Below are positions 10,082 to 40,944 of a stretch of 64,000 nucleotides of DNA, in pieces. The notes below the pieces were generated by a model, which was given only the letters and a program-made list of their open reading frames with translations, did not search any database and was not told the DNA's origin. The DNA is from an uncultured bacterium (lineage in GTDB: Bacteria; Krumholzibacteriota; Krumholzibacteriia; LZORAL124-64-63), in the NCBI GenBank assembly GCA_963727525.1, contig CAVSGO010000007.1, positions 1,792,001 to 1,856,000 on the forward strand, given 5' to 3'. The translations under genes and the position numbers were made by a program. The number at the start of each line of letters is the position of its first letter. Within the stretch, counting starts at the first letter, position 1.

Positions 10082-10211
10082 GCAACGGGCCGCGATTGAC
10101 TCGGAGCGCATGACTTTCTATCATGGGTTCGCGGCCGTCCGCGGCGCCCGCCGGGTGCCGCGCGCGTTCCCGTTAGCCCGCTTCCAAGCGATCCGCGCCG
10201 AAGGAGAACCC

Positions 10212-10994: not shown

Positions 10995-11018
10995 ATCTCA
11001 TCGGGAAAGGACGAGACC

Positions 11019-26911: not shown

Positions 26912-29740
26912 CTACTGGACGATCACCATCTTGCGCGTCTCGGTGAAGTTCTTTCCGCTCAGACGGTAGAAATACGTGCCGCTGCTGGTCTTCAGACCGT
27001 GATCGTCACGGCCGTCCCAGGTGCGCGTGTACTGACCCGCCACCAGCGGTGCGTGCTCGAGCGTGCGAACTCGCTGGCCGCGCACGTCGAAGATCGTCAG
27101 CGACACCACGCCGGCGTCGGCCGGCACGCTGAAGCTTATCTGCGTGGAAGGATTGAACGGGTTCGGCGCATTCTGCGCCAGACCGAAGGCGGTGGGCAGC
27201 GCATCCGGCGTGGCCGTAGCCGCGCCGTCGCATTCGAAACCCGAGATATCGTAGAGCGCCCAGCCCACGAGCGTCCCGGTGCCGCCGTTGCCCTGGTCAC
27301 GCACGATGAGCTGCCAGTCGCCATCAAGCGGCTGACCCAGGAACGTGCTCAGCGGTTGCGCCGGCGTGAGCGTGTTGGGGTAGTTGCCGATGATGTTGTC
27401 GGCCGAGCCACCCTGGAACGCCGTCAGGAAGATCGACGTGCCCTGCGGCGAGACCAGGCGCACGATGAGATCGCCGATGTAGTCGTGCAGGATGTTCACG
27501 TCGAGGTTCAGGTTCTCGTCGACGGTGGCACCCGTACCGCTGATCGTGATCGTGCTGACGACCTGGTTGCCATCGTTGTCCGGCACCGGGGTGTTCGGGC
27601 TCGCCACACCGTAACCGCCGAGCGGTACACCCACGTAGAGCTGAGCCGATCGCGTCACGCTGGCCGGAACGCCGTTCACCTGGTAGTCAATGGCCAGGGA
27701 GAAAGCCATGAGAGTCCCGCACGCGACGTTGCCATCCACGGTGACGGTGTAATCCACCGTGCTGGTGCTCTGACCGTTCACTGGCAGGTCGGGATAGTTC
27801 GCCGTGTCCTGGACCACTGTCACACCCGGCGTGGAGGTGCTCAGCACCGCGCTCACCGCGGTGGCGCCGGCCAGTCCGCTGTTCGCCAGCGTCACCTGCA
27901 CGTCCACCGTCTCGCCAGGATCCGCCGCGCCGTTGCCCGACGGCTCGGACGTCACGGCGAAGGACGCGACACCCACCGCCGGCAGCGGTTCGAGGATGAT
28001 GTTGTGCACGAGGAACTTCTGCACGAAGACCCCGGCGTGCGGGCCGCCGGGCTCCATCGCCTGCGCCGTGGCGATGATGACGTTGGCCATGTCACGCATC
28101 TTGAGACCGCTGCCAAGACCGAACTTCGACTCGAGCAGGATCGAGTCTACCGATTCGCGGGTCTCGCCCATGCCCACCAGCGTGATCAGCGACTGGAAGA
28201 GCGGCGTGCTCCACAGTTCGTCCGACTGGTAGCCGCCGGGGATCGACACGTGCGCCGGGTAGAAGGTGGTGTGCACGTACTGCGCGCCGTTGGCGTTCAG
28301 GATGCGTCCCGGCCAGCACTGGTTGCCGTTGCCATGGCCGTCCCAGGAGTAGATGTAGTTGGGAAAGAACGTGGGACCATTGGGGGTGCTGTAGCTGTAG
28401 GAACCACCCCAGTAGTCGCCCCAGCCCTCGCCCATGGCGCCGGTGTCGCCGCCTGACCAGTTGTGATTGATGTCCGAATCGATCGCATGGCCATACTCGT
28501 GCCAGATCACGTCGGCATCCTCGTCGTCATCGACACAGCCGTGACCAAAGGCCAGTCGGTTGGAGCCGGGCAGGTAGTGCGAGTTGTCGGCGCCGCTGAG
28601 GCCGTCGGTGTCCGTGCCGATCGAGCCGTCCTGGATGCCCATGGCGCCCACGAAGCCGAGGTCCTGCATGTAGCGCTGGCTCTTGTCGAGCTGGAAGTAC
28701 ACCATCGCATCGTCGAAGGAATTGTCGCCGCGGGCGCGATTCCAGTTGCCGTCGGGCGTGGTGCTGGGCGCCGTATTGGGAGTCTCGAAGTTGATGATAT
28801 TCACCCAGGGGCCGTTGAGGCGATAGACGGAACCGTCGAATTCGATGTCCATCAGCGGCTCGGTGAAGTAAGCGTTGGTAAAGGCGCTGGCCGGCGAGTT
28901 GTCCTGGAGGTTGTTGTTGATCAGCGTGGTGCGCGGATCCGGGTCGAAGACCAGGCCGGTGCCGTTCACGCGCGACTTCGCCGCGTTCATCATGGCGGCG
29001 CGCTTGGCCTCGAGCTCGGTGATGCGCGCGAAGGCCGCCTGGCGATCGGCCAGCGGGCCCTGGTGCTGACTCAGACGAACCTCGACCGGATCGACCGGCT
29101 GACGGTACATGGCCGTGTCCGTCACCTCGACGATCTGGCCGGTCACCGCGTCGATGCGGCAGCGCCAGGCGCCGTCTGGACCGTCGAGATCGAGATCGAC
29201 CAGCCAGTTCAGGCGGAAGCTCTCGCCCTCGGGCGTGTAGACCAGCTTCGCCGCCGGTAGCGACCGCAGGTCGCCGTAGGCACCCAGATAGCCCCAGGCG
29301 ATGTCGTACGCCGTTTCGGCGTCCATGCCACCGCGGGGCAGGAACGTCGCGTTCTCGCCCACGGGGTAGGTATTGTTGAAGATGCGCATCACGTGCCCGT
29401 CGCGCTTGCTCACGGACACGATGAACTCGGCGCCCTCGACGGGCAGGCCATTGAGCATTTGCTGGAAGGTGACATGGCGGGCAAGCAAGCTTTCGCGTTC
29501 GCCGCTGGGCATGAGATTGCCCAGGTCGGACGGCAACGCATACCTGGTCGCCTGATCTTGCAGGAAAGCCTCGGCGGTGCCTTGCGCGGTCGCACCCGCG
29601 ACGGCGTGCCAGGCGGGGTCGAACTGGACCTTCGCGGTCTCGCGATAATCCGTATGATAGGTGTCCGTCGCCAGCGAGGCCGCGCTCGCGGCAAAAGCAC
29701 CGGTAGCTAGCAGACCGATGACCAGTACCTTCAATTTCAT
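26912..29740 (-). CDS. Secreted M36/M4-like zinc metallopeptidase with propeptide, proprotein-convertase P-domain and FlgD-Ig-like C-terminal domain
   Basis: Signal peptide; FTP/PepSY-like propeptide (IDAVTG); HEYGH...EGWGD zinc site; HDYIGDL...GDWQLIVRD P-domain; QNAPNPFNP...YFYRL tail. Confidence 0.85.
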   Translation of the reverse strand: MKLKVLVIGLLATGAFAASAASLATDTYHTDYRETAKVQFDPAWHAVAGATAQGTAEAFLQDQATRYALPSDLGNLMPSGERESLLARHVTFQQMLNGLPVEGAEFIVSVSKRDGHVMRIFNNTYPVGENATFLPRGGMDAETAYDIAWGYLGAYGDLRSLPAAKLVYTPEGESFRLNWLVDLDLDGPDGAWRCRIDAVTGQIVEVTDTAMYRQPVDPVEVRLSQHQGPLADRQAAFARITELEAKRAAMMNAAKSRVNGTGLVFDPDPRTTLINNNLQDNSPASAFTNAYFTEPLMDIEFDGSVYRLNGPWVNIINFETPNTAPSTTPDGNWNRARGDNSFDDAMVYFQLDKSQRYMQDLGFVGAMGIQDGSIGTDTDGLSGADNSHYLPGSNRLAFGHGCVDDDEDADVIWHEYGHAIDSDINHNWSGGDTGAMGEGWGDYWGGSYSYSTPNGPTFFPNYIYSWDGHGNGNQCWPGRILNANGAQYVHTTFYPAHVSIPGGYQSDELWSTPLFQSLITLVGMGETRESVDSILLESKFGLGSGLKMRDMANVIIATAQAMEPGGPHAGVFVQKFLVHNIILEPLPAVGVASFAVTSEPSGNGAADPGETVDVQVTLANSGLAGATAVSAVLSTSTPGVTVVQDTANYPDLPVNGQSTSTVDYTVTVDGNVACGTLMAFSLAIDYQVNGVPASVTRSAQLYVGVPLGGYGVASPNTPVPDNDGNQVVSTITISGTGATVDENLNLDVNILHDYIGDLIVRLVSPQGTSIFLTAFQGGSADNIIGNYPNTLTPAQPLSTFLGQPLDGDWQLIVRDQGNGGTGTLVGWALYDISGFECDGAATATPDALPTAFGLAQNAPNPFNPSTQISFSVPADAGVVSLTIFDVRGQRVRTLEHAPLVAGQYTRTWDGRDDHGLKTSSGTYFYRLSGKNFTETRKMVIVQ

Positions 29741-29863: not shown

Positions 29864-29895
29864 GCGGCCCCCGGCGCCGCAGCACCGGGGGCCAC
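29864..29895 (-). terminator. Hairpin closing the cytochrome-rhodanese unit
   Basis: Minus-strand RNA GUGGCCCCCGGUGC-UGCG-GCGCCGGGGGCCGC pairs fully only with G-U wobbles, so it is strand-specific; it lies just after the rhodanese stop. Confidence 0.6.
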
Positions 29896-29916
29896 AAGTT
29901 AAACTCATACAATAAG

Positions 29917-31782
29917 TTACATGTTTGGCAGCGGCGTGACTTCCAGCGGGAAATCGTGCTGCGAGCCCGGCCCCCACGCGTGGGCCGTGAGGCTGTCGTG
30001 GAACAGGGCATTCGAGCCATTGCGAAGGCTGTAGGCCTCGTAGCCCAGCATGTTCAGGAACGCCGTGATCTGGGACGAGGTCTGCCCCGTCCAGCAGTAG
30101 ACCACGATCGGCTTGTCCAGGGGCAGGTGCCCGAGCAACTGGTCCAGGCCGAGGCTGCTGCCCGGCGAGAACTGGTAGGCGCCAGGAATGTGGCCCGGCG
30201 TGCCGGCGCTGCCGGTACCGTCGTAGTCGGCCTCGCCGAAGTAGTTGAGGATGAAGTAGTCACCCAGGTTGTCCTGGATGTCGGAGTACCCGATGCTCTT
30301 GAAACCGTCGGTGAGCATCGCCGCCACGCGGTCGGCCACGACGGTCTGCGGGGTCTCGTCCGCGAGCGTCGGATAGTCGTGCCAGACCAGCATGGTATTG
30401 TTGTGCGTGGTCTCGGGGTTGGTCAGCAGGTTGGCGCAGCTCGACGTCCAGTGGTCATAGCCGTCCTGGGTGCTCCATGACGACATGCCGAAGCCCAGCG
30501 TGTAGGTGTCGGTGTAGCCCATCATCTCGAGCGCGATCTTGGCGTGGCCTGCCGACTGGCCCGAGTAGCAGGCGACGACGAGCGGCTTGTCCGTGGGAAT
30601 CGTCGTGCCGACGTCGCTCAGCAGCGTGCCCAGCGAGGAATGGTACGCCCCGGCGATATGACCCGCGTCATACGTGGCCTGCGAGCGGATATCGATGACG
30701 GTGTAGTCCGACAGGTTGTCATAGAGCACCTGCGCCGAGATCACGCCCGGACAGTCGGCGGTGTTCACATAGTTGATGCCCGCGTCGAGCAACGTCTGGA
30801 AGGTCTCGTTCGGCTGGTAGCCGGAGGCCAGTGAGTAGTCGTGCTTCGACGTTTCGGCCCACGTGTGCGCCGTCAGGCTGCTGTGGAAGAGCGTGTTGGC
30901 GCCGTAGCGCAGGCTGTAGGCGTCGTAGCCGAGCATCTGCAGGTACGCGGTGACCTGCGACGACGTCTGGCTGGTCCAGCAGTAGACGATGATCGGCATG
31001 TCGGTGGGCAGGTATTTCAGCATCTGGTCCGCGCCCAGGCTCGCGCCCGGCGTGAACTGGAAGGCGCCCGGGATGTGGCCGGGCACGCCGGCGGTGCCGA
31101 CGCCGTTGTAGTCGTCCGCGCCGAAGTAATTCACGATGAAGTACGCGTCGAGATTGTCCTGGATATCGGACCATGCCTTGCCCCAGCTGCCGTTCAGCAG
31201 CATGGCCTGCACGCGCTCCTGAACGACCGTGGCCGGGGCCTCGGTGAGCACCGGGAATTCGTGTTCCACGAGACTGGCATTGTTGTTCGTGGTCTCGGGG
31301 CTGGCCAGGTTGTCGCCAACCGCGCCGTCCCAGCCGCCGCACAGCGCCGTGCTCCACGACGACATGCCGAAGCCCAGCGTGTAAACATCGGCGTAACCCA
31401 TCATCTCGAGAGCGATCTTGCCGCGGCCCGCGCTCTGACCGGTGTAGCAGGCCACGACCAGCGGCTTGTCCGTGGGAATCGTCGTGCCGACGTCGGTGAG
31501 CAGGGTGGCCAGCGACGAGTTGTAGGCGCCCGGGATGTGGCCGGCGAGGTAGGTGGCATTGCTACGGATGTCGATGACGGTGTAGTCGGCCAGATTGTCC
31601 TTCAAGGTCTGGGCCGAGATCACGCCCGGGCAGTCGGGCGAGTTGATGTAGGCCGCGCCCGCGGTCGCCATGGTCTCGAAGGCCGTGGTCGTGGGCGGCT
31701 GCGTGGTATCGTCATCCGAGCAACCCCAGAAGAGTGCCAGGACGAGCATAAGGAAAATCCAGCTGAGTCCCTTGCGATTCAT
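29917..31782 (-). CDS. Lipoprotein with four rhodanese domains (tandem duplication of a two-domain unit)
   Basis: Lipobox LFWG-C; GHIPGA/GHIAGA four times; active-site loops CYTGQ, CWTSQ, CYSGQ, CWTGQ; internal repeat at 879 nt offset. Confidence 0.9.
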   Translation of the reverse strand: MNRKGLSWIFLMLVLALFWGCSDDDTTQPPTTTAFETMATAGAAYINSPDCPGVISAQTLKDNLADYTVIDIRSNATYLAGHIPGAYNSSLATLLTDVGTTIPTDKPLVVACYTGQSAGRGKIALEMMGYADVYTLGFGMSSWSTALCGGWDGAVGDNLASPETTNNNASLVEHEFPVLTEAPATVVQERVQAMLLNGSWGKAWSDIQDNLDAYFIVNYFGADDYNGVGTAGVPGHIPGAFQFTPGASLGADQMLKYLPTDMPIIVYCWTSQTSSQVTAYLQMLGYDAYSLRYGANTLFHSSLTAHTWAETSKHDYSLASGYQPNETFQTLLDAGINYVNTADCPGVISAQVLYDNLSDYTVIDIRSQATYDAGHIAGAYHSSLGTLLSDVGTTIPTDKPLVVACYSGQSAGHAKIALEMMGYTDTYTLGFGMSSWSTQDGYDHWTSSCANLLTNPETTHNNTMLVWHDYPTLADETPQTVVADRVAAMLTDGFKSIGYSDIQDNLGDYFILNYFGEADYDGTGSAGTPGHIPGAYQFSPGSSLGLDQLLGHLPLDKPIVVYCWTGQTSSQITAFLNMLGYEAYSLRNGSNALFHDSLTAHAWGPGSQHDFPLEVTPLPNM

Positions 31783-31846
31783 CGCGTCAACTCCTCGGTC
31801 TGGCCCTGTGGGCCGTGAGCAGGGCGGCGGTCGCCCCATCGCGGTA

Positions 31847-31874
31847 CCGGCCGGCTCCCTCCGGAGCCGGCCGG
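31847..31874. other. Intergenic 12-bp GC stem-loop between the cytochrome and rhodanese genes
   Basis: ccggccggctcc-ctcc-ggagccggccgg with no U-tract; possibly an mRNA stabiliser or processing site. Confidence 0.45.
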
Positions 31875-31882
31875 CATGCGGA

Positions 31883-33298
31883 CTATTTGCCCGGGAACGA
31901 ACCCGGGATCACGATGTCGATGTTCGCGTCGTAATCGGGCAGCCTGGTCACGCCATCCGACTGGTAGAGATCGGACTCGCGCAGGAAGAAGCCCTCCGGT
32001 CCGTCCTGCGTGCCGTGGCACGACACGGTGCAGCTCTGGCCGTCCGGCACCGTTGTCTGCGCCGTCCACCGCTGGATGTTGTGCGGCGACGTGTAGACCC
32101 AGGTGGGACGGTCCAGGTAATTGGTCAGCGTCAGCCCCCAGTCGGCGAACGTATCCGGATCGACCGGCACGTGCCGCACGAGCGCGTAGTCATACCCGGT
32201 ACGATACGGGCTGGGGTTGCGCGCGATCTTGAGCTGCAGCACGCTGGGATCGATGTCCGACTTCAGCACGCCCTCGTCGCCGAGGTTGTGGCAGTTCGTG
32301 CAGTTCTTGTAGGGCTGCGAGTGACAGACCTGGCACTGCAAGCTCTTCCCCGGGCTGTTCACGTGTATCGAGTGGTAGGTGTTCGACGGCAGGGTGCCGT
32401 GGCAGCTCGCGTCCTCGCAACGCGGCATCGTGGCCACCTCGTAGCGGGCCACGTAGTGCGCACCGGTGTGCTGGTTGTCGCCGTGGATCTCTTCCTTGGT
32501 GTGGCAACCCTGGCACTGCATGCCGTTGGTGCGGTGAACGTCGGCCACGTTGCCCGCCAGCTCGCCCTTGAAGTCGGCGCCGATGCGGCTGCCGTGACAG
32601 GCGGTGCACTGCTCGTTCATGTCGGGCGTGGCCCGGAAACGGTGCGAGTAGTACGAGCCGATCTTCGGGAAGCCGCCGCCCACGCTGGCGGGTCGGCTGA
32701 TATGGCACTGGCCGCAGGTCGTGTGGCAACCGCCGCAACGTACCTCGTAGGCACCCTCGAAAGCCGAACCCTCGAAGGTGCAGCCGCAGCGCGCGGAGAT
32801 GGTGGCTTTCTCGCCCCACAGGTTGGTGTGCAGGCTGTTGGCGTTGGCCGCCGCTTCGGTGGCATGGCAGCCATCGCAGGCGCCGGTGGCGCTCGGATCG
32901 GATGTCAATCCCACGTGCGCCTCGGCCATCGTCGTGAACGTGCTGTCGGCCGCGCCGCCGTGGCAATCCTGGCAAGCGATCTGTCCGTGCACGCTGGAGA
33001 GGAACTGGTTTCCGTTGCTGCCGGTGATGATGACCTTTTCCCAAGCTTCCAGCTCGGGCACCTCGCCACCTCAGCCATCGTCCTTGTTGTAATCCGTATG
33101 CGCGACCTTGGTCGTAACACCGAGCGCGTCCTTGAGCATGGTCTCGTTCGCGTGGCAGCCGAGACAGGTCTTGTCCGTGGTCGTGTCGCCGCCGCCGCCA
33201 CCGGGATCGGTGGGGCCGCCGTCGTCGCTGCCGCCGCAGCCCCAGACCGCTACCAGAAGCAGCGCCGGCAAGAGTCTGCGAATGCCGTGTATCTTCAT
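31883..33298 (-). CDS. Selenocysteine-containing multiheme cytochrome c lipoprotein (471 aa, Sec76 encoded by TGA at 33073-33071)
   Basis: One frame from ATG 33298 (GGGAG RBS, lipobox VWG-C) through ...GAT GGC TGA GGT GGC GAG GTG CCC... to the stop at 31883. 9 CxxCH plus CEDASCH and CTVSCH. SECIS-like hairpin 12 nt after the TGA. The downstream part alone has no export signal. Confidence 0.82.
33040..33070 (-). promoter_or_regulatory. Candidate bacterial SECIS element
   Basis: UGA-GGUGGCGAGGUG-CCCGAGCU-GGA-AGCUUGGG: an 8-bp stem with one G-U pair and a G-initiated apical loop 20 nt after the UGA. Confidence 0.72.
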
Positions 33299-33317
33299 GG
33301 CCACTCCCATGGTTGCG

Positions 33318-33938
33318 CTACGGCGTTTCCACCGCAGCATCCGTACGTAATCCGCGAGCAAAGATCGGAACCGTATTGCAATAGACGTCGCGCGCGACGA
33401 ACTCCGGGCAGCTCATCACGCGCTCCCAGACGCCGAAATTCAGCGCGCAGTCCATGGCCATACCCACGAAGCAGCGGCTGGTGATGAAGGGTTCGATCGG
33501 ACGCACCTCGCCGCTGGCGATGCGCGCGTTGAGTTCTTCCGTGAGGAACCGGACGTAGGGCAGACGCACTTCCTTGAAAAGCACGTGCGCGACGTCGCCG
33601 CTCTCGAAGCTGTTGTTGACCATCAACCGCATGAGCGTGGAATCATCGAGAGTGATGGCGAGGATGTGCGCCGAGACCGCCTCGAGAAGCTGCTCCAGGC
33701 TGCCTTGACCCCGGCGTTGCGCGAGATAGCCAGCGATCTCGTGTTGCGCGGCCTTCTGCCGGATGACTGCCTCGTAGAGCGCGAGTTTGCTTGCAAAGTG
33801 ACGATAGATGGCGCCTTCCGTGATCCCGCACGCCGTGGCGACGGCGCGTACCGCCGTGCCGGCGAAACCGTGCTTCGCGAAGAGTTCGGTCGCGACCTCG
33901 AGGATCTGCTGCTTCCGATTGCCTGTGGCCTGTGGCAT
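33318..33938 (-). CDS. TetR/AcrR-family transcriptional regulator
   Basis: RKQQILEVATELFAKHGFAGT...GAIYRHFASK HTH; alternative GTG start at 33944. Confidence 0.93.
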   Translation of the reverse strand: MPQATGNRKQQILEVATELFAKHGFAGTAVRAVATACGITEGAIYRHFASKLALYEAVIRQKAAQHEIAGYLAQRRGQGSLEQLLEAVSAHILAITLDDSTLMRLMVNNSFESGDVAHVLFKEVRLPYVRFLTEELNARIASGEVRPIEPFITSRCFVGMAMDCALNFGVWERVMSCPEFVARDVYCNTVPIFARGLRTDAAVETP

Positions 33939-33968
33939 TGACACGTCCCGCTGGGTTCCCCGGAGTCA

Positions 33969-34015
33969 GTGAACGTTTACCAACTCGACGGTAATGGCTG
34001 TGAATGTATTGTCAA
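33969..34015 (-). promoter_or_regulatory. Promoter and candidate TetR operator of the tetR-cytochrome-rhodanese unit
   Basis: Minus strand TTGACA (34015-34010), 16 nt, TACCGT. Near-palindrome GTGAACGTTTAC at 33969-33980 just downstream of the -10 box. Confidence 0.55.
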
Positions 34016-34270
34016 GAACAGATCCCATGTTAACAATCCAGGATCACAACAATCGCGCTTTGTGGGCCAATATCTAGCGGTTTTCAGAAACAATCGAGGT
34101 GTCTTGAAGCAAATATCGGGCTAGACAGGGATGAATATGTTTATCAAATAACATATCATACCGTTTAAGTATGCGTCCGCCGCCTCGATCGAAATCCGGC
34201 GAGGATCCACCGTGGGCAGGAAGCGGTGGTGGCGCTATCATCCCGAAAACCGACAGCCAGCGAGGTGAGC

Positions 34271-34834
34271 ATGTCTGATCTCTACCATCGCGACCACGCC
34301 CTCACGCTCCTGCACGAGTTCACGCACGGCGAGGCCCTGCGCCGCCATGCCTACGCCGTGGAAGCCGCCATGCGCGCGGCCGCCCGGCGCACCGATCAGG
34401 ACGAGGATTACTGGGGCGCCGTGGGCCTGCTGCACGACTTCGATTACGAGATGTATCCCGAGCCGCCGGACCATCCGCTGAAGGGGGCGGACATTCTGCG
34501 CGAGCGGGGCTACCCGGAGACGTTCGTGCGCACCATCCTCGCCCACGCCAGCTACACCGGCATACCGCGCGACAACGAATGCGCGCGCTGGCTCTTCGCG
34601 GTGGACGAGCTGTGCGGCTTCTGCATGGCCTGCGCCATGGTGCAGCCGGATCGCCTCATCGCGCAGGTCAAGCCGTCTTCAGTGCGCAAGAAGCTCAAGA
34701 AGAAGGACTTTGCCGCCAAGGTGAATCGCGAGGAGATCGCCGAGGGCGCGGCCGACCTCGGCCTCACGGTGGACGAGACGATCGTCCACGTGCTCGAGGC
34801 GCTGGTGCCCATCGGCAACACTCTTGGCCTGTGA
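34271..34834 (+). CDS. HD-domain (HDIG-type) metal-dependent phosphohydrolase
   Basis: RRHAYAVEAAM, GLLHDFDYE, AVDEL, KDFAAKVNRE. Confidence 0.85.
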   Translation: MSDLYHRDHALTLLHEFTHGEALRRHAYAVEAAMRAAARRTDQDEDYWGAVGLLHDFDYEMYPEPPDHPLKGADILRERGYPETFVRTILAHASYTGIPRDNECARWLFAVDELCGFCMACAMVQPDRLIAQVKPSSVRKKLKKKDFAAKVNREEIAEGAADLGLTVDETIVHVLEALVPIGNTLGL

Positions 34835-34859
34835 GGCGGGCCGCGGCCATGGTGAACTC

Positions 34860-36059
34860 ATGACGCCATCGATTCCCACCGTCACCGTCACGGTGGACGC
34901 GCTGCGCGACCGCCTCGCCGCGCTCTGCCCCGACCAGGCCATCGATCTCGCCGGCGCGGTGCCGCTGCCGGTCGCTCTGCCGCACCGCGAAGCCTGGCTC
35001 GACTGGGTGGCCAGTGGGCGTCACGCTGGCCTGGAGTACCTGGCGCGCGACCCCGAGGGGCGCGCCGATCCCACGCGCCGCGACCCCTGGGCCCGCGCGC
35101 TGCTCGTCTTCGCCCAGCGTTACACCGACGGCTGGCCGGCCGACGACCCCTCCGCGCGTGAAGGAATCACGGCCGGCGGGACGTGGATCGACGGTGTCGC
35201 ACGTTACGCGCGCGGCGACGACTACCACGAGGTTCTGCACGACGCCATCGCCGCGGTGCTGAGGGGACTGGCGGACACGTGGCCCGGTCTGCGCGCGCAC
35301 CCGGCCGTGGACACCGGTCCTTATCTCGAACGCGAGTACGCGCTGCTGGCCGGTCTCGGCTTCGTCGGCAAGAACACTTGCCTCATCCACGAGCGCCTGG
35401 GTTCCGGCCTGTTCCTGGGCACGGCGCTCACGAATCTCGCGATCACGGGCCTGCCCGCCGCTGATCCGGGACGCGCCGAACCCCTCTACGCCACGGCCCC
35501 GCGTCCCCATCGCGCCCGGATCGGTCCGGCCGCCGCGAGCCGTTGCGGTTCATGCACGCGCTGCCTGGAGGCCTGCCCCACCGGCGCGCTCGTCGCCCCC
35601 TACGTGATGGACGCCAACCTCTGTCTCGCCACCTGGACCATCGAGTGGAAGGGGCACGCGCCGGCCGCCGCGCGCCACCGCCAGGGGGGCATCGTCTTCG
35701 GTTGCGACATCTGCCAGGCCGTGTGCCCCTGGAACGTGCGCGCCGCGCGCCGGGCCGCCGACGGCGAGACGGAGGTGCCGCCGCCTCCACCGGCCTACGC
35801 CACCCGCGCGGACCACGCCGAGATCGCCCTCGCCGACCTGATCGTGCTCGGCCGCGATGCCTTCCGCCAGCGCTTCCGCGCCACCGCGATCTGGCGTTGC
35901 CATCCCGAGGGCCTGCGCCGCAACGTGATGGTAGCGGTGGCGAATGCCAGGCGCCGCGATCTGCGCCTCGCCCTTGGCGCGGCTGCTCAGGAAGACCCTG
36001 ACCCGGAAGCCCGGCAGGTGGCCACCTGGGCCACGGACCAGCTTGGCGAGGAGGCCTGA
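34860..36059 (+). CDS. queG: Epoxyqueuosine reductase
   Basis: ARYARGDDYH, VDTGPYLER, GFVGKN, CGSCTRCLEACPT, FGCDICQAVCPWN. Confidence 0.92.
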   Translation: MTPSIPTVTVTVDALRDRLAALCPDQAIDLAGAVPLPVALPHREAWLDWVASGRHAGLEYLARDPEGRADPTRRDPWARALLVFAQRYTDGWPADDPSAREGITAGGTWIDGVARYARGDDYHEVLHDAIAAVLRGLADTWPGLRAHPAVDTGPYLEREYALLAGLGFVGKNTCLIHERLGSGLFLGTALTNLAITGLPAADPGRAEPLYATAPRPHRARIGPAAASRCGSCTRCLEACPTGALVAPYVMDANLCLATWTIEWKGHAPAAARHRQGGIVFGCDICQAVCPWNVRAARRAADGETEVPPPPPAYATRADHAEIALADLIVLGRDAFRQRFRATAIWRCHPEGLRRNVMVAVANARRRDLRLALGAAAQEDPDPEARQVATWATDQLGEEA

Positions 36060-37048
36060 TGGACGCGCAGTGGTGGCAACCCCTGGATGGCGACCGCGTG
36101 GCCTGCGCACTCTGCCCCATCGGCTGCCGGCTGCGCCCTGGACAGGACGGCCCCTGTGGCACGCGCGGCAACCGGCGCGGCCGCATGGCCACGCTCCACT
36201 ACGGCAAGGTCGTCGCCCTCGGTGTCGACCCCATCGAGAAGAAGCCGCTCTACCACTTCCTGCCGGGCAGCCTCGTCCTTTCGGTCGCGGCGCCCGGCTG
36301 CAACATGCACTGCTTGTTCTGCCAGAACTGGGGCATCAGCCAGAAGCACGACGCGGCCACGCGCGACATGTCGCCGCAGCACGTCGTCGACCAGGCCGTG
36401 CGCGCGGGATCGCGTTCGGTGGCCTTCACGTACAGCGAGCCTCTGGTGTGGTACGAGTTCGTGTGCGACACGGCGCAACTCGCCCGCGATGCCGGCCTGC
36501 GCACCGTGATCGTGTCGAACGGATTCCTCAATCGCGAGCCGCTCGCCGCGCTCATCCCGTACATCGACGCCGCCAACATCGACCTCAAGTCGATGGACGA
36601 TGGGTTCTACCGCAAGGTCTGCAAGGCACGCCTGCAGCCGGTGCTCGATACGATCACCGACCTCCACGCGGCCGGCGTCCATCTCGAGATCACGAACCTC
36701 GTGATCCCGGGCCAGAACGACAGCGATGCGGCCATCGCCGCCCTCGCCGACTTCGTCGGCGGCTTGAGCCGTACCATCCCGCTGCATCTTTCGGCCTACC
36801 ACCCGAGCTATCGCTTCGACGCGCCGGCCACGCCGCCGGCCACACTGGCGCACGCCGCCGCTGTTTGCGCGCAGCAGGTCGATCACGTCTACGTGGGCAA
36901 CTGCGATCTGCCGGAGTGGAACGATACCCTATGCCCCCAGTGCGGCGCCACGGTGATCGCGCGCGTGGGGTACCATACGCAGAATCGCCTCACAGCCGAC
37001 GGCCAATGTCCGCGTTGCCGGCACCTCATCGCCTGCGTCGTGACCTGA
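36059..37048 (+). CDS. amrS: AmmeMemoRadiSam-system radical SAM enzyme
   Basis: DPIEKKPLYHFLPG, GCNMHCLFCQNW (CxxxCxxC), FTYSEP, NIDLK, YVGN. Confidence 0.9.
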   Translation: MDAQWWQPLDGDRVACALCPIGCRLRPGQDGPCGTRGNRRGRMATLHYGKVVALGVDPIEKKPLYHFLPGSLVLSVAAPGCNMHCLFCQNWGISQKHDAATRDMSPQHVVDQAVRAGSRSVAFTYSEPLVWYEFVCDTAQLARDAGLRTVIVSNGFLNREPLAALIPYIDAANIDLKSMDDGFYRKVCKARLQPVLDTITDLHAAGVHLEITNLVIPGQNDSDAAIAALADFVGGLSRTIPLHLSAYHPSYRFDAPATPPATLAHAAAVCAQQVDHVYVGNCDLPEWNDTLCPQCGATVIARVGYHTQNRLTADGQCPRCRHLIACVVT

Positions 37049-37056
37049 CGATCGCG

Positions 37057-37413
37057 TCAGGCTTGCGGGTAGGTGCAGGTGACGCGGGTCGTGATGCCCC
37101 CGCGTACGAACCAGTCGCCGGTGACGACCAGGCGGCGCGGCTGCGTGACCGCCACGATGTCGTCGAGGATCTGGTTGGTCACCTTCTCGTGGAATGCCCC
37201 TTCGTCGCGATAGCTCCACAGATACAGCTTCAGCGACTTCAGTTCCACGCACCGCGCGTCCGGCATGTAGGTGATACGGAAATGGGCGAAGTCCGGCTGC
37301 CCCGTCAGCGGGCACAGACAGGTGAACTCGGGACAGTCGAAGGCGATCTCGTAGTCGCGGTCAGGCGCCGGGTTGGAAAACGTCTCCAGCGTGCGCGACG
37401 GCTGCGTGGGCAT
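37057..37413 (-). CDS. queF: NADPH-dependent preQ0 reductase (type I)
   Basis: [32 protein letters not shown]. Confidence 0.95.
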
Positions 37414-37548
37414 CGGCAAACCTCCTCGGGGTGACAGCCAAGGTAGGGCGCCGCAGAGGCCGTGGCCAGGGGGAGACGCCGGCGCCATGCAGGCGGCCCC
37501 CGGTCGCGAAGACCAGGGGCCGCAGGTGCCGGTCGGGCGGGGCCGCGC

Positions 37549-38739
37549 TCAGCGCAGGCGCTTGCCCGGCAGCTTCTGGGGATACATGGGTTCGTCGTGG
37601 CATCCCTGACAATCGGGTTTGCGCGCGAAGTCGCGGTCATGATGGCAGTCGCCGCAGCTCACCTCCTGGTGGATCTCGTCGAGTTCCACACCGGTAACGC
37701 TGTGGTTGAACGCCCCCTCTTCCCAGTGGATGTGGCAGTTCGTGCAGCGAGGCGACGGCGTACGGAACGCCTTCGGCTCGCCGTGGCAGGTATTGCAGGC
37801 CACCTTGGCGTGGAAAGGCGTCAGCGAGAATTTCGCCGACTCGGCGTGGTGGAACGCCGGCTCCTCCTGCTGCGAGTGGCAGAAGTCACAGTTGCGCTCG
37901 GCGTGACAGGCTCCACATGTCGTGACGTGGTCGACCTTGCGCACGGGAACGGTGGTGGCCGTACCCTTCAGGTTATCATGGCAACGACTGCAGCTCTCGC
38001 CGCGATGGCAGTCGACGCACTTGAGGCCGAACTTCTCCACGTGATCGTTGTGATGGAAGGTCACCACTGGACCCTTGGCGTAGCTCGTCTTGTAGGTGTA
38101 GAACGGCGTCGCCTCGATTTGCGGATGCCGCACGCCCAGAAGATCCGTCTTGTCCGGCTTCGCGGTCACGTGATTCGCTCCCGATTCCGCGTGACAGAAC
38201 TCGCAGGCGTTGTCGTGGCTCCAGTCGAGGTGGCAGTTGATGCACTGCCGGTGATACGCGCCCTTGAGCGATGGCTGCCGGAGGTCCATCGCCGCCGGGG
38301 CCGGATCATGGCAATCGCGACAGGGCGGAATCGTTCCCGATTGCTCCGAGTAATGGTGGCAGTTCTCGCAGCCGCCGGTCATCGCCGACATCTGCGCGTG
38401 CAGGCGATGCGCGAACACGACCGGTTCGTAGAGCTTGGAGAGCTGATCGATCACGACGACCTCCGGCCCCTCTTCCAGCTTGTGCGTGCCCACGAAACTA
38501 TCCTTGTGCCGGGGACAGGTGCCCATGCAGGGATCGTCGGCCGTGGGATTGTCGCACTGGTGGCACTCGGCGCAGGCCAGCGACGTGTTCACGTGTGACG
38601 ACGGAACGGCCTCCCGGGGATGGGCCGGGTCCATCACCTGGCCAGCCGCCGTTGCGGCCAGCACGGTCACGCCGACGGCGACGAGCAGGGACAGGAACCG
38701 GGTGCGGTTCTCGGGGCAGCAAAACTGCACGTCACGCAT
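37549..38739 (-). CDS. Periplasmic multiheme cytochrome c (13 CxxCH, cytochrome c3-like modules)
   Basis: Signal peptide; 13 CxxCH counted; FxH-type distal His motifs (VFAHRLH, TFHHNDH, FNH). Confidence 0.9.
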   Translation of the reverse strand: MRDVQFCCPENRTRFLSLLVAVGVTVLAATAAGQVMDPAHPREAVPSSHVNTSLACAECHQCDNPTADDPCMGTCPRHKDSFVGTHKLEEGPEVVVIDQLSKLYEPVVFAHRLHAQMSAMTGGCENCHHYSEQSGTIPPCRDCHDPAPAAMDLRQPSLKGAYHRQCINCHLDWSHDNACEFCHAESGANHVTAKPDKTDLLGVRHPQIEATPFYTYKTSYAKGPVVTFHHNDHVEKFGLKCVDCHRGESCSRCHDNLKGTATTVPVRKVDHVTTCGACHAERNCDFCHSQQEEPAFHHAESAKFSLTPFHAKVACNTCHGEPKAFRTPSPRCTNCHIHWEEGAFNHSVTGVELDEIHQEVSCGDCHHDRDFARKPDCQGCHDEPMYPQKLPGKRLR

Positions 38740-40033
38740 GGTCGGCTCCTTCTTCGACTGGCAGCACGGGGAACACGAACACGAACAGCCGGTACAGTAG
38801 TGTCAGCAGGGAGATGAAGCCGACGGTCAGCACGATCTCGGTCCACCGCGGGATGTAGGGGCCGGTGGCGAACGGCGGGTGGTAGGCGATGATGAACACG
38901 TCGAAACGGTTGAGCGCCACGCCGAAGACCACCATGGCCGCCGCCGCGAAGAGCCAGCCGGGATGACGACGCAGGCGGTGGCTCAGGAAGATCGCCCACG
39001 GGATCACGATGCCCACGATCAGCTCGATCCAGTACATCGTGCTCTGCAGCGACCCCTCGAAGAGGTAATGCCAGGCGTTGCGGTTCACGAGGTCGATGAC
39101 CTTGGCCGCGAAGTAGACCGTCAGCAGGAAGGGGATCAGTCTTGCCAGCGGACTGAGCACCTTCATCTCGTAGGGACGTTTCAGCGAGCGCGACGCCAGG
39201 AGCGACTCGAAGACCACCATCGACAGGCCCACGGCGAAGGCCGACAGCAGGAAGAACAGCGAAAGGACCTTGGTGTGCCAGAGCGGATGCAGCTTGGTCG
39301 GCGCGAGCACCATGAGCGTACCCAGCGACGACTGGTGTGCACATGAAAGCACGACACCCATGATCACGAAGAACCCGATGACCTTGCTAAGGGTCTTGTC
39401 GATCAGGCGCAGCAGACCATCGAGAGGACGGTTCAGCACGCGCAGCGCGCCGGGCAGGTTCACCCGGCCGATGAACCGCTCGCAGACGATCGGCAGGAAC
39501 TCGATGTACAGCACTGTGAGATAGCAGCACACGCACATACCGACCTCGAAGAGCGCCGAATTGCCCTGCCACATGGACGGCACGAGCACGTGCCAGATGT
39601 TGTAGTAGCGGCCCAGATCGACCACCACGCCCAGCGCCACGAAGGTGTAGCCGAGCATCGCCGTCAGCAGCGCAGGCCGCACGATCGCCTCGTAACGATC
39701 GTTGTGCAGGATGTGCGCCACGAAGGCGCTCGTGAAGCCGCCGGCCGCGAGGGCCACGCCCGTCGCCACGTCGATTCCGATCCAGATGCCCCAGGGGTAC
39801 TGGTTGTTGAGATTCGTGACGGCGCCGAGACCGGCGAAGAGGCGGTAGATCAGCACGGCGATGCCCGCGGCCGCGAGCACCGCGAGCACCATGACGCCGG
39901 GCGTGAAGAAGGGCACCGCGGAGCGCCCGAACAGGGGTGCGGCGTGTTCGTGGTGCGGAGCGTGTGTCGCCGCACGGGGTGCGACGGCTCCGTCGAGGAC
40001 GGCGGCACCGCCCCGGGACGTGGCGCTAGACAT
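38732..40033 (-). CDS. NrfD/HybB-family integral membrane quinol oxidoreductase subunit
   Basis: PWGIWIG.D, ALAAGGF, DLGR, SALFEV, HQSSLG, LHPLW; many TM helices. Confidence 0.9.
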   Translation of the reverse strand: MSSATSRGGAAVLDGAVAPRAATHAPHHEHAAPLFGRSAVPFFTPGVMVLAVLAAAGIAVLIYRLFAGLGAVTNLNNQYPWGIWIGIDVATGVALAAGGFTSAFVAHILHNDRYEAIVRPALLTAMLGYTFVALGVVVDLGRYYNIWHVLVPSMWQGNSALFEVGMCVCCYLTVLYIEFLPIVCERFIGRVNLPGALRVLNRPLDGLLRLIDKTLSKVIGFFVIMGVVLSCAHQSSLGTLMVLAPTKLHPLWHTKVLSLFFLLSAFAVGLSMVVFESLLASRSLKRPYEMKVLSPLARLIPFLLTVYFAAKVIDLVNRNAWHYLFEGSLQSTMYWIELIVGIVIPWAIFLSHRLRRHPGWLFAAAAMVVFGVALNRFDVFIIAYHPPFATGPYIPRWTEIVLTVGFISLLTLLYRLFVFVFPVLPVEEGADHA

Positions 40034-40934
40034 CGGAGTCCTCCTTTTCACGGCGCCGGTCACTCGAAGACTTCATCAGGACGGTCAGCAGGCCTAGGAG
40101 CATCAACGGACCGGTGAACCCCTTGAAGATGCCGTGCTGGATCCGCTCGGTCACCTCGTTGGGACTCTCGTCCGATACACCCGGGAAGCCGGCTTCCTGG
40201 AAGTCACGGTCCGCGAGGTAGAGCCAGGAGGTCCCGCCCACCTCGTGCTCGCCGTAGATGTGGGAAACGTAGCGCTCGGGATAGTTGCGCAGGCGCTGAT
40301 TCGCGAGTTCGACCAGCTCATCTCGCCGGCCGAATACCAGTGCCTCGCGCGGACAGATTTCCACGCACGCCGGCAACCCGCCCTCGAGAGTCCTCTCGGC
40401 GCAGAGAGTGCACTTCATCACCTTGGGCGTGAGCGCGTTCTGGAACTCGTACGCGGGGATCTGGAATGGGCAGGCCACCATGCAGTAGCGGCAGCCGATG
40501 CACTTTCCGGCGTCGTACGTCACGGGGCCTCGGTCGTTCTTCTGCAGAGCGCCCACGATGCAGGCCGAAACGCAGGCCGGGTGCTCGCAATGCAGGCAGT
40601 TCACCTTCACGTCCACCTTCTTGGCGTGCGTGGCATCCTCGGGATACCGGTTGACCACCGTGAAGGCCTGGGCGTCGGGGCGCCGCATATGCTGGAATAC
40701 GCCGGTGTCGTCGTACGCCTCGAGGTCGCCATGGGGCAGGCCGTTCTGGCGCGCGCAGGCCCACTCGCAGCGGCGGCAGCCGATGCAGAGCGTGGTATCC
40801 ACGAGCACGCCGAACCGATCGGGCGCAAGCTCGTGGTGCGTGGCCGCGGAGGCCACCGATGCGCTCGTCACGGCGATGGCGGCTGTCCCCGTCGCTGTGC
40901 CGGCGAGCTTGAGGAAATCTCGACGACTGACCAT
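40026..40934 (-). CDS. HybA/HmcB-like Tat-exported 4x[4Fe-4S] protein with a C-terminal anchor
   Basis: SRRDFLK Tat motif; CIGCRRCEWAC, CLHCEHPACVSAC, CIGCRYCMVAC, KCTLC...PACVEIC, IYGEHEVGGT. Confidence 0.92.
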   Translation of the reverse strand: MVSRRDFLKLAGTATGTAAIAVTSASVASAATHHELAPDRFGVLVDTTLCIGCRRCEWACARQNGLPHGDLEAYDDTGVFQHMRRPDAQAFTVVNRYPEDATHAKKVDVKVNCLHCEHPACVSACIVGALQKNDRGPVTYDAGKCIGCRYCMVACPFQIPAYEFQNALTPKVMKCTLCAERTLEGGLPACVEICPREALVFGRRDELVELANQRLRNYPERYVSHIYGEHEVGGTSWLYLADRDFQEAGFPGVSDESPNEVTERIQHGIFKGFTGPLMLLGLLTVLMKSSSDRRREKEDSDV

Positions 40935-40944
40935 GCTAGCCTCC

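Follow-up and report, generated by a model that had tools for sequence, protein, structure and literature searches.

A predicted selenoprotein cytochrome and the multidomain rhodanese lipoprotein encoded beside it may form the terminal module of a sulfane-sulfur reductase outside the cytoplasm

MccSep, which is ExtKL (GSU2937-2936) of Geobacter sulfurreducens, was identified in August 2026 as a selenocysteine (Sec)-dependent multiheme polysulfide reductase with weaker activity on selenite (PMC13510729); NF040886 is the ExtKL model, according to a May 2026 review. The Geobacter extHIJKL cluster comprises ExtH, the outer-membrane barrel ExtI, ExtJ, and ExtKL. The original prediction for the locus studied here had drawn an analogy to this cluster, and rightly: ExtKL is reported to be a pentaheme cytochrome containing Sec, and ExtH a lipoprotein of the rhodanese family (PMC6148476). 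The same source places TetR regulators in some ext-like clusters. Rhodaneses are also reported to supply sulfur to sulfur reductases (PMC6378623), as in the Sud/PsrABC system of Wolinella succinogenes and the Aquifex sulfur reductases, in which an extracytoplasmic rhodanese-type carrier is described as feeding a respiratory reductase, much as we propose below. The reductase of our locus would be a Sec-heme protein, not a molybdopterin enzyme. Reductases of the Sud/Psr type are molybdopterin enzymes with an NrfD-type membrane anchor, and Sud itself is a small single-domain soluble protein.

Our locus lies in a 64-kb stretch of DNA, referred to here as the window. Three genes occupy the minus strand in the order TetR, cytochrome, rhodanese, with intergenic gaps of 19 and 100 nt; the coordinates bear out exactly the co-oriented trio that had been claimed. 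The first gene (33318..33938; ATG at 33938, TAG at 33320-33318) encodes a 206-aa TetR-family regulator (Pfam TetR_N, E = 8.5e-17). The second (31883..33298; ATG at 33298, TAG at 31885-31883), translated with TGA as U, encodes a 471-aa lipoprotein undecaheme c-type cytochrome that is a putative selenoprotein, and the third (29917..31782; ATG at 31782, TAA at 29919-29917) encodes a lipoprotein with four rhodanese domains (PF00581 in four stretches, E = 2.1e-48). The cytochrome lipobox (...LVAVWG-C) and that of the rhodanese (...ALFWG-C), both read from the sequence, agree with the earlier claim that the two are lipoproteins, and the observation as a whole (gene trio, Sec cytochrome, and rhodanese) was confirmed.

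The cytochrome carries nine CxxCH heme motifs, one Cx4CH motif (heme 8), and one Cx3CH motif (heme 11), and all 11 are conserved (alignment A3). A word-indexed search found 1,584 relatives, and there were 555 genome hits. Many of these homologs bear the JGI label “thiosulfate/3-mercaptopyruvate sulfurtransferase,” which we rejected as automatic; the proteins have no rhodanese domain. Membership of the cytochrome in the MccSep/ExtKL family was likewise considered and rejected: it has no match in NCBIfam at E ≤ 10, with the ExtKL model NF040886 included, and no significant match in the PDB, either by sequence or by fold, which places it outside that family. True MccSep homologs with the usual C-terminal Sec occur in Krumholzibacteriota (Data S1), so the two cytochrome families coexist in that phylum. 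The architecture had been called uncharacterized; this holds for the protein family but no longer for the kind of system.

Despite the absence of a detectable sequence relation, the two cytochromes have much in common. Both are c-type multiheme proteins with one Sec, specified by an in-frame UGA that is followed by a hairpin; in each, the Sec belongs to an Asp/Glu-Gly-Sec loop, and each family has Cys as well as Sec forms. Both are extracytoplasmic, molybdenum is absent from both, and each has the gene of a rhodanese-family lipoprotein nearby (ExtH in the case of MccSep). The differences are also clear. The window cytochrome has 11 hemes and MccSep has 5; the window Sec is placed between hemes 1 and 2, 55 residues past the lipid-modified Cys, whereas that of MccSep is in a C-terminal Ig-like domain; and the window cytochrome is a lipoprotein, whereas MccSep is soluble and periplasmic. 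Unlike MccSep, the window family shows no conserved nonmotif Cys in its alignment that could ligate a heme. It has only 10 conserved nonmotif His residues for its 11 hemes, which probably leaves one heme with a distal site that is open or occupied by something other than His. In TsdA, SoxAX, and heme 2 of MccSep, which have His/Cys-ligated catalytic hemes, a chalcogen nucleophile stands beside the heme for S-S chemistry. The one heme in 11 that is left without a conserved His partner recalls this arrangement, but in a family with no conserved Cys the stand-in would putatively be Sec itself.

The frame of the cytochrome gene is broken only once, by a TGA (33071..33073, minus strand) that is codon 76 from the ATG and would encode the U of D-G-U-G-G. 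Of 80 species-level loci, 76 have TGA at this column, within the motif [D/E]-G-U-G-G-x-V-P-x-L-E-A-W. The other four have W, Q, R, or G there, so that Sec is dispensable for the fold in some lineages, and Cys occupies the column in 13 of 45 representatives with continuous open reading frames (ORFs). A SECIS-like hairpin with an 8-bp stem and a 3-nt loop (33040..33058, minus strand; fold z score, −2.3) starts 12 nt past the UGA. Its positions pair in 93.9% of cells, compared to 87.6% in shuffles, of which 0 of 500 reached the observed value, and in at most 63.5% when the hairpin was slid; one pair covaries, A-U (26) or C-G (25), at a synonymous Ala position. Shuffling of synonymous codons gave a z score of −3.67 for the window hairpin. 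Across the family, the mean z score was −1.01 versus −0.38 for a control stretch (Wilcoxon P = 0.006), and z was ≤ −1.64 in 14 genes at the hairpin versus 11 at the control, of 64 genes, so that family-wide synonymous-codon support for the hairpin is modest. The hairpin is largely dictated by the conserved peptide P-x-L-E-A-W.

Formally, the TGA could be a real stop, leaving either a pseudogene or two genes, one for a small monoheme lipoprotein and one for a cytochrome, with no selenoprotein. Gene callers split most database entries in the two-gene way, with most homologs beginning right past the TGA. Rfam gave no match in the window, and no tRNA-Sec was seen there, nor SelA, SelB, or SelD among its Pfam matches, although 64 kb is too small a stretch for missing Sec machinery to count. 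However, a signal peptide and heme 1 are encoded only 5′ of the TGA; the part 3′ of it lacks a signal peptide but must be exported for heme attachment. Reading frame, TGA column, and adjoining motif are all conserved in 76 of 80 species, Cys replaces Sec in 13 of 45 continuous relatives, and a conserved hairpin is present at SECIS distance. Taken together, these findings make a real stop extremely improbable. Recoding of the TGA is well supported, also by TGA being the usual stop of the window, in 24 of 34 Pfam-supported ORFs, and we infer that Sec is inserted at UGA76. In the predicted structure, residues 66 to 72 have pLDDT values below 50 and residues 71 to 80 average 57; with confidence this low just before the Sec, no geometry can be read from the model.

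Linkage of the cytochrome and rhodanese genes had been set beforehand as a check on the original prediction, and it held strongly: a rhodanese lipoprotein gene comes next after the cytochrome gene, on the same strand, in 65 of the 68 loci with room (at least 2,000 nt downstream of the cytochrome). Many uncultured bacteria thus share the pairing. The rhodanese gene is present at 64 of 65 Sec-type loci and at 1 of 3 non-Sec loci (Fisher P = 0.004, not corrected for phylogeny). Relatives of the window rhodanese have two or four domains. The active-site Cys residues of the window protein (C112, C268, C405, and C563, in the loops CYTGQSA, CWTSQTS, CYSGQSA, and CWTGQTS) are all invariant among 29 four-domain homologs. 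In having two or four domains, each with a Cys, this family differs from the ext rhodanese. In both systems the rhodanese is a lipoprotein, but the Sec cytochrome is periplasmic in ext and a lipoprotein in the window.

The reading that we favor, to which we would give about an even chance, is that the unit is the terminal module of a putative extracytoplasmic sulfane-sulfur reductase, with polysulfide or S0 a likely substrate and selenite a possible one. By analogy, the polysulfide reductase activity of MccSep and its turnover of selenite make such sulfur/selenium chemistry plausible. The cytochrome would be exported by its lipoprotein signal and its 11 c-type hemes attached, with Sec76 inserted at the UGA, presumably aided by the hairpin 12 nt downstream. 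Rhodanese chemistry and the conserved gene pairing suggest that the rhodanese lipoprotein loads sulfane sulfur as a persulfide on its four active-site Cys residues and offers it to the cytochrome. The catalytic step would borrow the Sec-plus-heme logic of MccSep: Sec76, acting near the heme with the open or non-His distal site, might attack the S-S bond to form a selenosulfide, which electrons from the heme chain would reduce, releasing sulfide.

The physiological substrate might instead be a selenium or tellurium oxyanion, with the unit serving as a selenite/tellurite reductase or detoxifier and the rhodanese carrying selenium as a perselenide. MccSep is reported to turn over selenite with a Vmax of 59 μmol/min/mg versus 83 for polysulfide (PMC13510729), the ext cluster was first tied to selenite and tellurite reduction (PMC5877670), and in NCBIfam ExtH bears the name of a “selenite/tellurite reduction operon” protein. 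However, the window rhodanese reaches just 19.5 bits against the ExtH model (cutoff, 200), MccSep is said to favor polysulfide about sevenfold (PMC13510729), and the module occurs in 555 or more species genomes although selenite is in short supply in the majority of habitats. We consider this substrate quite unlikely.

To place the unit in an electron path, we examined the genes around it. A DmsE-family decaheme cytochrome (TIGR03508; 202.7 bits, cutoff 192.2) is encoded upstream in 30 of 80 loci, and a 631-aa signal-peptide protein ending in Phe, a putative outer-membrane barrel, is encoded directly upstream in 35 of 80. In these 30 to 35 relatives, the order is thus periplasmic decaheme, barrel-like protein of ~630 aa, and lipoprotein multiheme cytochrome, with the TetR gene between barrel and cytochrome, and this order puts the Sec cytochrome in the position of MtrC. 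It fits the mtr pattern of the MtrCAB/DmsEF systems as described (PMC6148476). The likeness ends at the lipoprotein cytochrome, which is from another family (its match to the Pfam MtrC/MtrF domains II/IV is weak, at 24.5 bits, below the cutoff of 30) and has 11 hemes, a Sec, and a rhodanese partner, and at the inserted TetR gene. Compared with ext, the window's relatives likewise bring together a rhodanese lipoprotein, an outer-membrane barrel, and a Sec cytochrome, but ext does not have their MtrA/DmsE-type decaheme-plus-barrel conduit, and the window locus itself has neither barrel nor decaheme, with no match to the pair at the locus. Multiheme c/cytochrome b fusions are encoded downstream in four other loci (L044, L046, L050, and L057). 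With such neighbors in relatives, the unit appears to be the terminal part of a longer path for electrons, the rest of which is not encoded adjacent to it in the window. In many relatives, electrons would arrive through the decaheme and barrel encoded directly upstream; in the window genome, the module would be fed from elsewhere. The overall interpretation was supported only in part: linkage and the ext analogy stood, but a self-sufficient “compact oxidoreductase” it probably is not, given the decaheme and barrel that precede the unit in 30 to 35 relatives. A cytochrome in the MtrC position would probably lie on the cell surface. Acidic residues follow the lipid-bearing Cys in both proteins (C-S-D-D-D-D in 58 of 67 rhodaneses and C-[DE]-N-D in 50 of 66 cytochromes), a stretch that we take to resemble the surface-lipoprotein export signal of Bacteroidota, and the Sec cytochrome is possibly surface exposed.

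Could the cytochrome then be a lipoprotein for extracellular electron transfer in general, working as an MtrC for minerals, humics, or partner cells, with Sec and rhodanese being accessory or protective rather than substrate defining? Its position behind the decaheme and barrel and its weak MtrC/MtrF domain match are consistent with this, as is locus L037, where a non-Sec (Gln) form keeps the decaheme and barrel without rhodanese or TetR. However, Sec is costly and usually catalytic, its column is conserved in G-U-G-G context in 76 of 80 loci, and it tracks with the rhodanese gene. Moreover, the electron-transfer hemes of MtrC-type proteins are bis-His ligated, whereas only 10 conserved distal His residues are available for the 11 hemes here. 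We judge both parts of this explanation very unlikely.

Nothing in the sequence fixes the direction of electron flow, and MtrAB/DmsEF-like conduits can run either way; MtoAB oxidation is reportedly the subject of a published paper. The same proteins might therefore oxidize sulfide, polysulfide, thiosulfate, or solid sulfides, the rhodanese gathering sulfur and the Sec-heme site drawing electrons inward via the hemes, as in Mto/Pio-type systems. The authors of the MccSep study themselves liken its mechanism to a possible reverse of thiosulfate oxidation by TsdA/SoxAX (PMC13510729). Against this, the sole characterized Sec-multiheme enzyme is a reductase, the window neighbors (pyruvate:ferredoxin oxidoreductase, an Hmc-like complex, and a radical SAM enzyme) look anaerobic, and the window showed no Sox, Dsr, or Sqr genes. 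Oxidation and the inward electron flow that it entails are both unlikely, and we retain the reductase reading.

Regulation of the unit may involve its first gene. TetR would act as a repressor, binding a palindrome before its own gene and so controlling the unit; the candidate operator is an inverted repeat (33963..33986, no strand assigned) between a TTGACA hexamer and the TetR start. An AACGTT-centered element of the form GTnAACGTTnnCTnAC is found upstream of TetR in 21 of 43 TetR-carrying relatives. Two near-invariant cysteines, Cys156 (43 of 44 homologs) and Cys164 (44 of 44), may sense reactive sulfur. A TetR homolog lies 5′ of the cytochrome gene in just 42 of 74 loci with room, which counts somewhat against our preferred explanation.

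The proposed boundaries of the unit fared less well than its genes. The TTGACA hexamer (34008..34013, minus strand), read from the letters, is present but is weak evidence for the promoter claimed; it is only −35-like, and a consensus promoter scan found no matching −10 and called no sigma-70-type site on the minus strand. The hairpin past the rhodanese stop (29866..29893, minus strand; 12-nt arms, 92% complementary) is real, but it has no T run, and the terminator scan made no call there. A perfect 12-bp GC hairpin without a U tract stands just past the cytochrome stop (31847..31874, minus strand) and is a candidate 3′ stabilizer, attenuator, or terminator; with so strong a hairpin between the cytochrome and rhodanese genes, their cotranscription in the window genome is only putative. 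Of 57 relatives, 32 have a structured region (z ≤ −2) between the two genes, and its sequence differs among them. In some lineages the genes overlap or are 0 to 16 nt apart; 8 loci have overlaps of −4 or −1 nt, for example −4 nt in L060, L061, L069, and L073.

The three genes lie co-oriented on the minus strand, as the original prediction had it: a TetR-family regulator gene runs from an ATG at 33938 to a TAG at 33320-33318 (span 33318-33938), a multiheme cytochrome gene with one in-frame TGA (33073-33071) runs from an ATG at 33298 to a TAG at 31885-31883, and a rhodanese gene runs from an ATG at 31782 to a TAA at 29919-29917. The claimed gaps of 19 and 100 nt are exact on this strand, and the lipoprotein nature ascribed to both structural proteins can be read directly from the sequence, each starting with a lipobox (WG-C). 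The observation was confirmed as a whole; of its details, the promoter proposed to bound the unit upstream was not recovered, the promoter scan having called none on the minus strand. A perfect 12-bp GC hairpin with no U tract (31847-31874) stands directly after the cytochrome stop codon, and the cytochrome-rhodanese spacer of close relatives is also ~100 nt long with a strong GC hairpin. Across relatives, 32 of 57 such intergenic regions were structured (z <= -2); in close relatives, the structure occupies the same place and the hairpin sequences differ.

Read through the TGA at codon 76, the cytochrome is 471 residues long, and comparison of its relatives makes it very probable that it is a genuine selenoprotein. 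Scanning a single genome for each species gave 599 pattern matches, 555 of them encoding a cytochrome relative, and the best 80 of these at least 555 loci (the L loci) were retained. TGA occupies the identical column in 76 of the 80, with coding conserved on both sides; the remaining four have TGG (L029, Trp), CAA (L037, Gln), CGG (L071, Arg), and GGC (L065, Gly). The context of Sec among the retained TGA loci is [D/E]-G-U-G-G-x-V-P-x-L-E-A-W, with both glycines after U and the tryptophan present in 76/76. Since the TGA is preceded by the lipoprotein signal and heme motif 1 and is followed by the other ten motifs, the part behind it could not be exported alone. Moreover, TGA is the usual stop codon of the window, where it ends 24 of 34 Pfam-supported open reading frames (ORFs), so that the in-frame TGA requires special decoding. 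A profile search of 1.84 billion representatives returned 1527 matches at E <= 0.001. We chose 45 representatives that run stop-free through the Sec column (40 from this search and 5 from an earlier homolog search), and these have Cys (13 sequences, mostly G-C-G-G), gaps (6), W (5), A (5), P (3), Q (3), S (3), or other residues (7) there. Cys was found at this column in none of the best 80 of at least 555 loci.

A SECIS-like hairpin of 8 bp (33058-33040, minus strand) begins 12 nt past the UGA. Across 71 sequences (68 distinct), 93.9% of its pair cells hold standard pairs, compared to 87.6 +/- 0.9% in column shuffles, of which 0/500 reached the observed value; slid registers were at most 63.5% paired. 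One pair covaries, being A-U in 26 sequences versus C-G in 25, with 17 further sequences unpaired there, and it joins the second base of a variable codon to the synonymous third base of an Ala codon. In a stricter control, synonymous codons of 64 genes were reshuffled with the peptide kept. The mean z value was then -1.01, versus -0.38 in a control stretch taken from these genes (paired Wilcoxon p 0.006); 14 of the 64 genes reached z <= -1.64, versus 11 for the control stretch, and the window hairpin itself scored -3.67. Because the conserved peptide already fixes much of the stem, these results support RNA-level selection on the hairpin only modestly. The family nonetheless combines a conserved in-frame UGA, a SECIS-like stem-loop, and Cys homologs, as is generic for bacterial selenoproteins. 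Genes selA, selB, and selD and tRNA-Sec were not found within the 64-kb window, a stretch too small for this to weigh much, and neither Rfam nor ARAGORN gave a match there.

The cytochrome has nine CxxCH heme motifs plus C-E-D-A-S-C-H (Cx4CH) and C-T-V-S-C-H (Cx3CH), and all 11 motifs are conserved across an alignment of 45 cytochrome sequences (A3). Set against these 11 hemes, the alignment has nine invariant and one near-invariant non-motif histidines, no conserved Met, and no invariant Cys besides the lipobox and the heme motifs; C174 of the protein sequence P0001 (C171 counted from the ATG; R-C-G-C) is not constant among homologs. Only subthreshold matches were found in Pfam, to MtrC/MtrF domains II/IV (PF22113; 24.5 bits versus a cutoff of 30) and to cytochrome c7. 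The window cytochrome thus falls short of the PF22113 cutoff that defines an MtrC/OmcA-type domain; many of its homologs carry a precomputed PF22113 label. No NCBIfam family matched at E <= 0.01, and at E <= 10 the sole match was DsrJ (E 3.5). Searches of the PDB gave two matches with the single sequence (E 0.96 and 1.6) and 14 with the profile, led by a 278-aa cytochrome c (E 4.6e-4) and followed by cytochrome c7 and NrfA; we set the profile matches aside as generic heme-motif similarity only. JGI names many truncated cytochrome homologs “thiosulfate/3-mercaptopyruvate sulfurtransferase”; they contain no rhodanese domain, and the name was probably carried over from the neighboring gene or from fused miscalls.

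The closest known system is that of Geobacter, which pairs ExtH, a rhodanese-family lipoprotein, with ExtKL (MccSep), a Sec multiheme polysulfide reductase. MccSep was described in August 2026 as a periplasmic homotetramer with five hemes, whose C-terminal Ig-like domain holds Sec325 in a D-G-U-P loop beside a His/Cys-ligated heme; it reduces polysulfide better than selenite, and S0 respiration depends on it (PMC13510729). The cytochrome-type families named in the available part of a May 2026 selenoproteome review are ExtKL (NF040886), the GSU2204 family (NF041027), and a GenBank-annotated octaheme tetrathionate-reductase type (TIGR04315) (PMC13188914), and the window cytochrome matches none of these three NCBIfam models, that for MccSep included. 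In contrast with the five CxxCH motifs of MccSep, the window family has 11 conserved heme motifs. Its Sec, at position 76 in a protein of 471 residues, falls between the first two hemes in a [D/E]-G-U-G-G motif, of which just D/E-G-U is shared; the strictly conserved Cys that serves MccSep as the distal ligand of the active-site heme has no counterpart in A3. The AF2 model of the window cytochrome is fair overall (pLDDT 79.9, pTM 0.77) and weak immediately ahead of Sec (residues 66-72 below 50; residues 71-80 averaging 57). Foldseek found 0 PDB matches for it at E <= 0.001 in a library that ends in April 2026, so that entries 9WT8-9WTC, for the MccSep fold of a five-heme cap and an Ig-like stem, are probably absent from it. 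HAO-like, MccA, and NrfA chains were the best matches and were discarded as fold relatives, since E values of 0.7-3 are unusable. Judged by the family model and the described features, the window cytochrome falls outside the MccSep family in every sequence-level comparison. True MccSep homologs of Krumholzibacteriota, with the usual architecture, are listed in Data S1 of the MccSep study (PMC13510729), which shows the two families to be distinct and both present in this phylum. MccSep-type genes (D/N-G-U-P after the hemes) were found neither in the window nor in the best 80 of at least 555 loci, and a search of the full-text literature outside subscription journals and bioRxiv supplements found no description of the window family. 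We conclude that the window cytochrome represents a new, widespread, misannotated selenoprotein family. At least 555 species-level genomes contain it, most of them from uncultured phyla, and because routine annotation splits the cytochrome at the TGA, the family is invisible there.

The proposed linkage of cytochrome and rhodanese held in the neighborhoods of homologs. Among the best 80 of at least 555 loci, 68 have at least 2000 nt downstream, and in 65 of these a rhodanese homolog is next on the same strand; the three without one are L037 (Gln form), L071 (Arg form), and L063, a Sec form in which an NrfC-like FeS gene comes next. A rhodanese is present at 64/65 Sec-type loci versus 1/3 non-Sec loci (Fisher p 0.004, on small numbers and with kinship ignored). 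L065 (Gly form) has just a weak single-domain rhodanese match, and at L029 (Trp form) the contig ends too soon to tell. In distant relatives, the two genes overlap or are almost contiguous (-4, -1, 2, 7, or 11-16 nt), and this spacing makes cotranscription near certain in some lineages; in the window genome, it is a possibility. The window rhodanese matches Pfam PF00581 in four stretches and has the rhodanese fold and active-site Cys, with C112, C268, C405, and C563 invariant in 29 four-domain homologs. Partners in relatives have two or four domains, with loops of the types C-Y-T-G-Q-S-A and C-W-T-G-Q-H/T-S, and 67 of 74 are lipoproteins by regex. Against the model of ExtH, the rhodanese-like lipoprotein of the selenite/tellurite operon (NF040901), the window rhodanese scored 19.5 bits versus a cutoff of 200, with the N-terminal 80 residues alone matching, which places it outside that family. 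A search for longer, fused cytochrome-rhodanese forms gave two matches among 5381 candidates, both database proteins that we set aside as evidence of fusion: P0122 looks like a frameshifted read-through of adjoining genes, because it has an internal lipoprotein signal, and P0123 is a fusion with rhodanese domains ahead of the cytochrome and a garbled Sec region.

Relatives also point to a possible electron path. By tblastn, which underlies the neighbor counts for rhodanese, TetR, decaheme, and ~631-aa protein alike, a decaheme cytochrome lies ~3.3-3.95 kb upstream of the Sec codon in 30 of the best 80 of at least 555 loci, and a ~631-aa protein that has a signal peptide, ends in Phe, and matches no family follows the decaheme in 35 of these 80. 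The decaheme exceeds the DmsE-family cutoff (TIGR03508, 202.7 bits versus 192.2), and the ~631-aa protein is a putative outer-membrane barrel, as read solely from its signal peptide and C-terminal Phe. Such relatives (L001-L049; decaheme and putative barrel at, e.g., L003:4274-7091) have the gene order decaheme, putative barrel, TetR, Sec cytochrome, and rhodanese. This order resembles the mtr pattern outlined in the available text of PMC6148476 (a decaheme in the periplasm, an outer-membrane protein, and a cytochrome lipoprotein), with the Sec cytochrome in the place of MtrC. Conduit neighbors are a feature of relatives and not of the window, at whose locus tblastn found no match to the decaheme or the ~631-aa protein. 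Locus L037 has the decaheme, the putative barrel, and a non-Sec cytochrome (Gln form; 8001-9569), with neither TetR nor rhodanese. The mtr-like order would also suit a less likely rival function, general extracellular electron transfer.

In Bacteroidota, lipoproteins are marked for export to the surface by acidic residues behind their lipid-bearing Cys. An acidic run follows this Cys in the rhodanese (C-S-D-D-D-D, 58/67) and in the cytochrome (C-[DE]-N-D, 50/66) and, by analogy, hints at a surface location of both, which we take as a lead. At four more distant loci (L044, L046, L050, and L057), large multiheme cytochrome c proteins are encoded downstream of the rhodanese gene (e.g., L044:10657-13398); the L044 protein, the one examined, has a fused cytochrome b561-type membrane domain, and these proteins may be a quinol-oxidizing entry point. 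In the window genome, the Sec cytochrome might receive electrons from the products of an Hmc-like operon on the minus strand (37549-41547), ~3.6 kb from the TetR gene. This operon encodes MarR, a TAT-signal FeS protein resembling HmcB, an NrfD membrane subunit of HmcC/HybB type, and a multiheme cytochrome c and may form a quinol-to-periplasmic-cytochrome module. We rejected it as a linked partner: among the best 80 of at least 555 loci, its NrfD and multiheme genes occur in none and its FeS gene occurs only at L063. ORF clusters C2 and C5 were likewise dropped as neighbor genes, being antisense artifacts of greedy ORF calling in high-GC DNA.

We hypothesize that the rhodanese would carry sulfane sulfur as a persulfide, that Sec76 would attack this sulfur, and that the heme chain would reduce the resulting selenosulfide with release of sulfide, both proteins probably being surface exposed. 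One of the 11 hemes may be catalytic, because nine invariant and one near-invariant non-motif histidines serve 11 hemes and there is no conserved Met or free Cys. The same parts might run in the opposite direction, with the unit oxidizing sulfur compounds, or might serve selenite or tellurite reduction; selenite is a poorer substrate than polysulfide for MccSep. The original prediction of a sulfur or selenium oxidoreductase built from a rhodanese and a Sec-heme protein is supported in part: the pairing stood, and the redox function stays a prediction. Its predicted function would make the window unit a repeat of the Sec-heme sulfur-reduction route with unrelated parts, adding a rhodanese partner and, in relatives, an MtrAB-type context. 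The idea is that of MccSep, realized in a different family with no detectable homology, 11 hemes, a lipid anchor, a multi-active-site rhodanese, and a porin-cytochrome conduit in relatives. The most elaborate form of this proposal, which we think rather unlikely, is a second, independently evolved Sec multiheme enzyme family: a cell-surface undecaheme lipoprotein with Sec as the distal ligand of a catalytic heme or over its open face, fed via an MtrAB-type conduit and served by a surface rhodanese. If it were true, uncultured bacteria labeled Krumholzibacteriota, Latescibacterota, Eisenbacteria, KSB1, Phycisphaerae, and Ignavibacteria could respire solid sulfur extracellularly without a molybdopterin polysulfide reductase, and a heme ligated by selenolate or gated by Sec would be a cofactor environment of a new kind. 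Molybdenum-free S0 reduction in bacteria was explained, for Geobacter, only in August 2026, by the Sec-heme MccSep. Should the function hold, the carrier phyla would gain a role in the sulfur cycle, Sec-heme catalysis would have a second route, and extracellular sulfur respiration would have a directly testable case.

The regulator has an N-terminal helix-turn-helix domain (PF00440, TetR_N; 61.1 bits versus a cutoff of 24), and a TetR gene precedes the cytochrome in 42 of the 74 loci with room (among the best 80 of at least 555), mainly in closer relatives. An inverted repeat upstream of the window TetR gene (33963-33986) is a candidate TetR operator, and it recurs as the AACGTT-centered GTnAACGTTnnCTnAC upstream of TetR in 21 of 43 loci examined. 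Cys156 (43/44) and Cys164 (44/44), in the ligand-binding half, are kept, and Cys37 (36/44) and Cys187 (33/44) are mostly conserved. Persulfide-sensing repressors exist, and by analogy our guess is that this TetR is a candidate thiol or persulfide sensor of reactive sulfur.

The surrounding window genes are 55-80% identical to genes of metagenome-assembled genomes, one of which (L037) is labeled Krumholzibacteriota. Synteny over window positions 34226-37488 with L015, L017, L022, L026, and L037 covers QueF, an AmmeMemoRadiSam radical SAM protein, QueG, and an HD-domain gene. In these five relatives, QueG and HD flank the cytochrome island, which in the window lies beyond HD; the island was apparently inserted or rearranged at a shared site. 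Elsewhere in the window, genes for an FAD-linked oxidase, ETF beta and alpha, and a membrane Fe-S protein with CCG domains (5204-7720, 10110-11990, and 18275-20305) look like an electron-transfer-flavoprotein-linked dehydrogenase set that is separate from the Sec cytochrome unit. Immediately downstream of the rhodanese, the minus strand carries a gene for a 942-aa secreted protein (26912-29740) that has an FTP propeptide motif and a proprotein-convertase P domain, weakly resembles M36 metallopeptidases, and ends in a C-terminal sorting domain for type IX secretion, a tail suggestive of the FCB group; just 5 of the best 80 of at least 555 loci have a homolog in their flanks.
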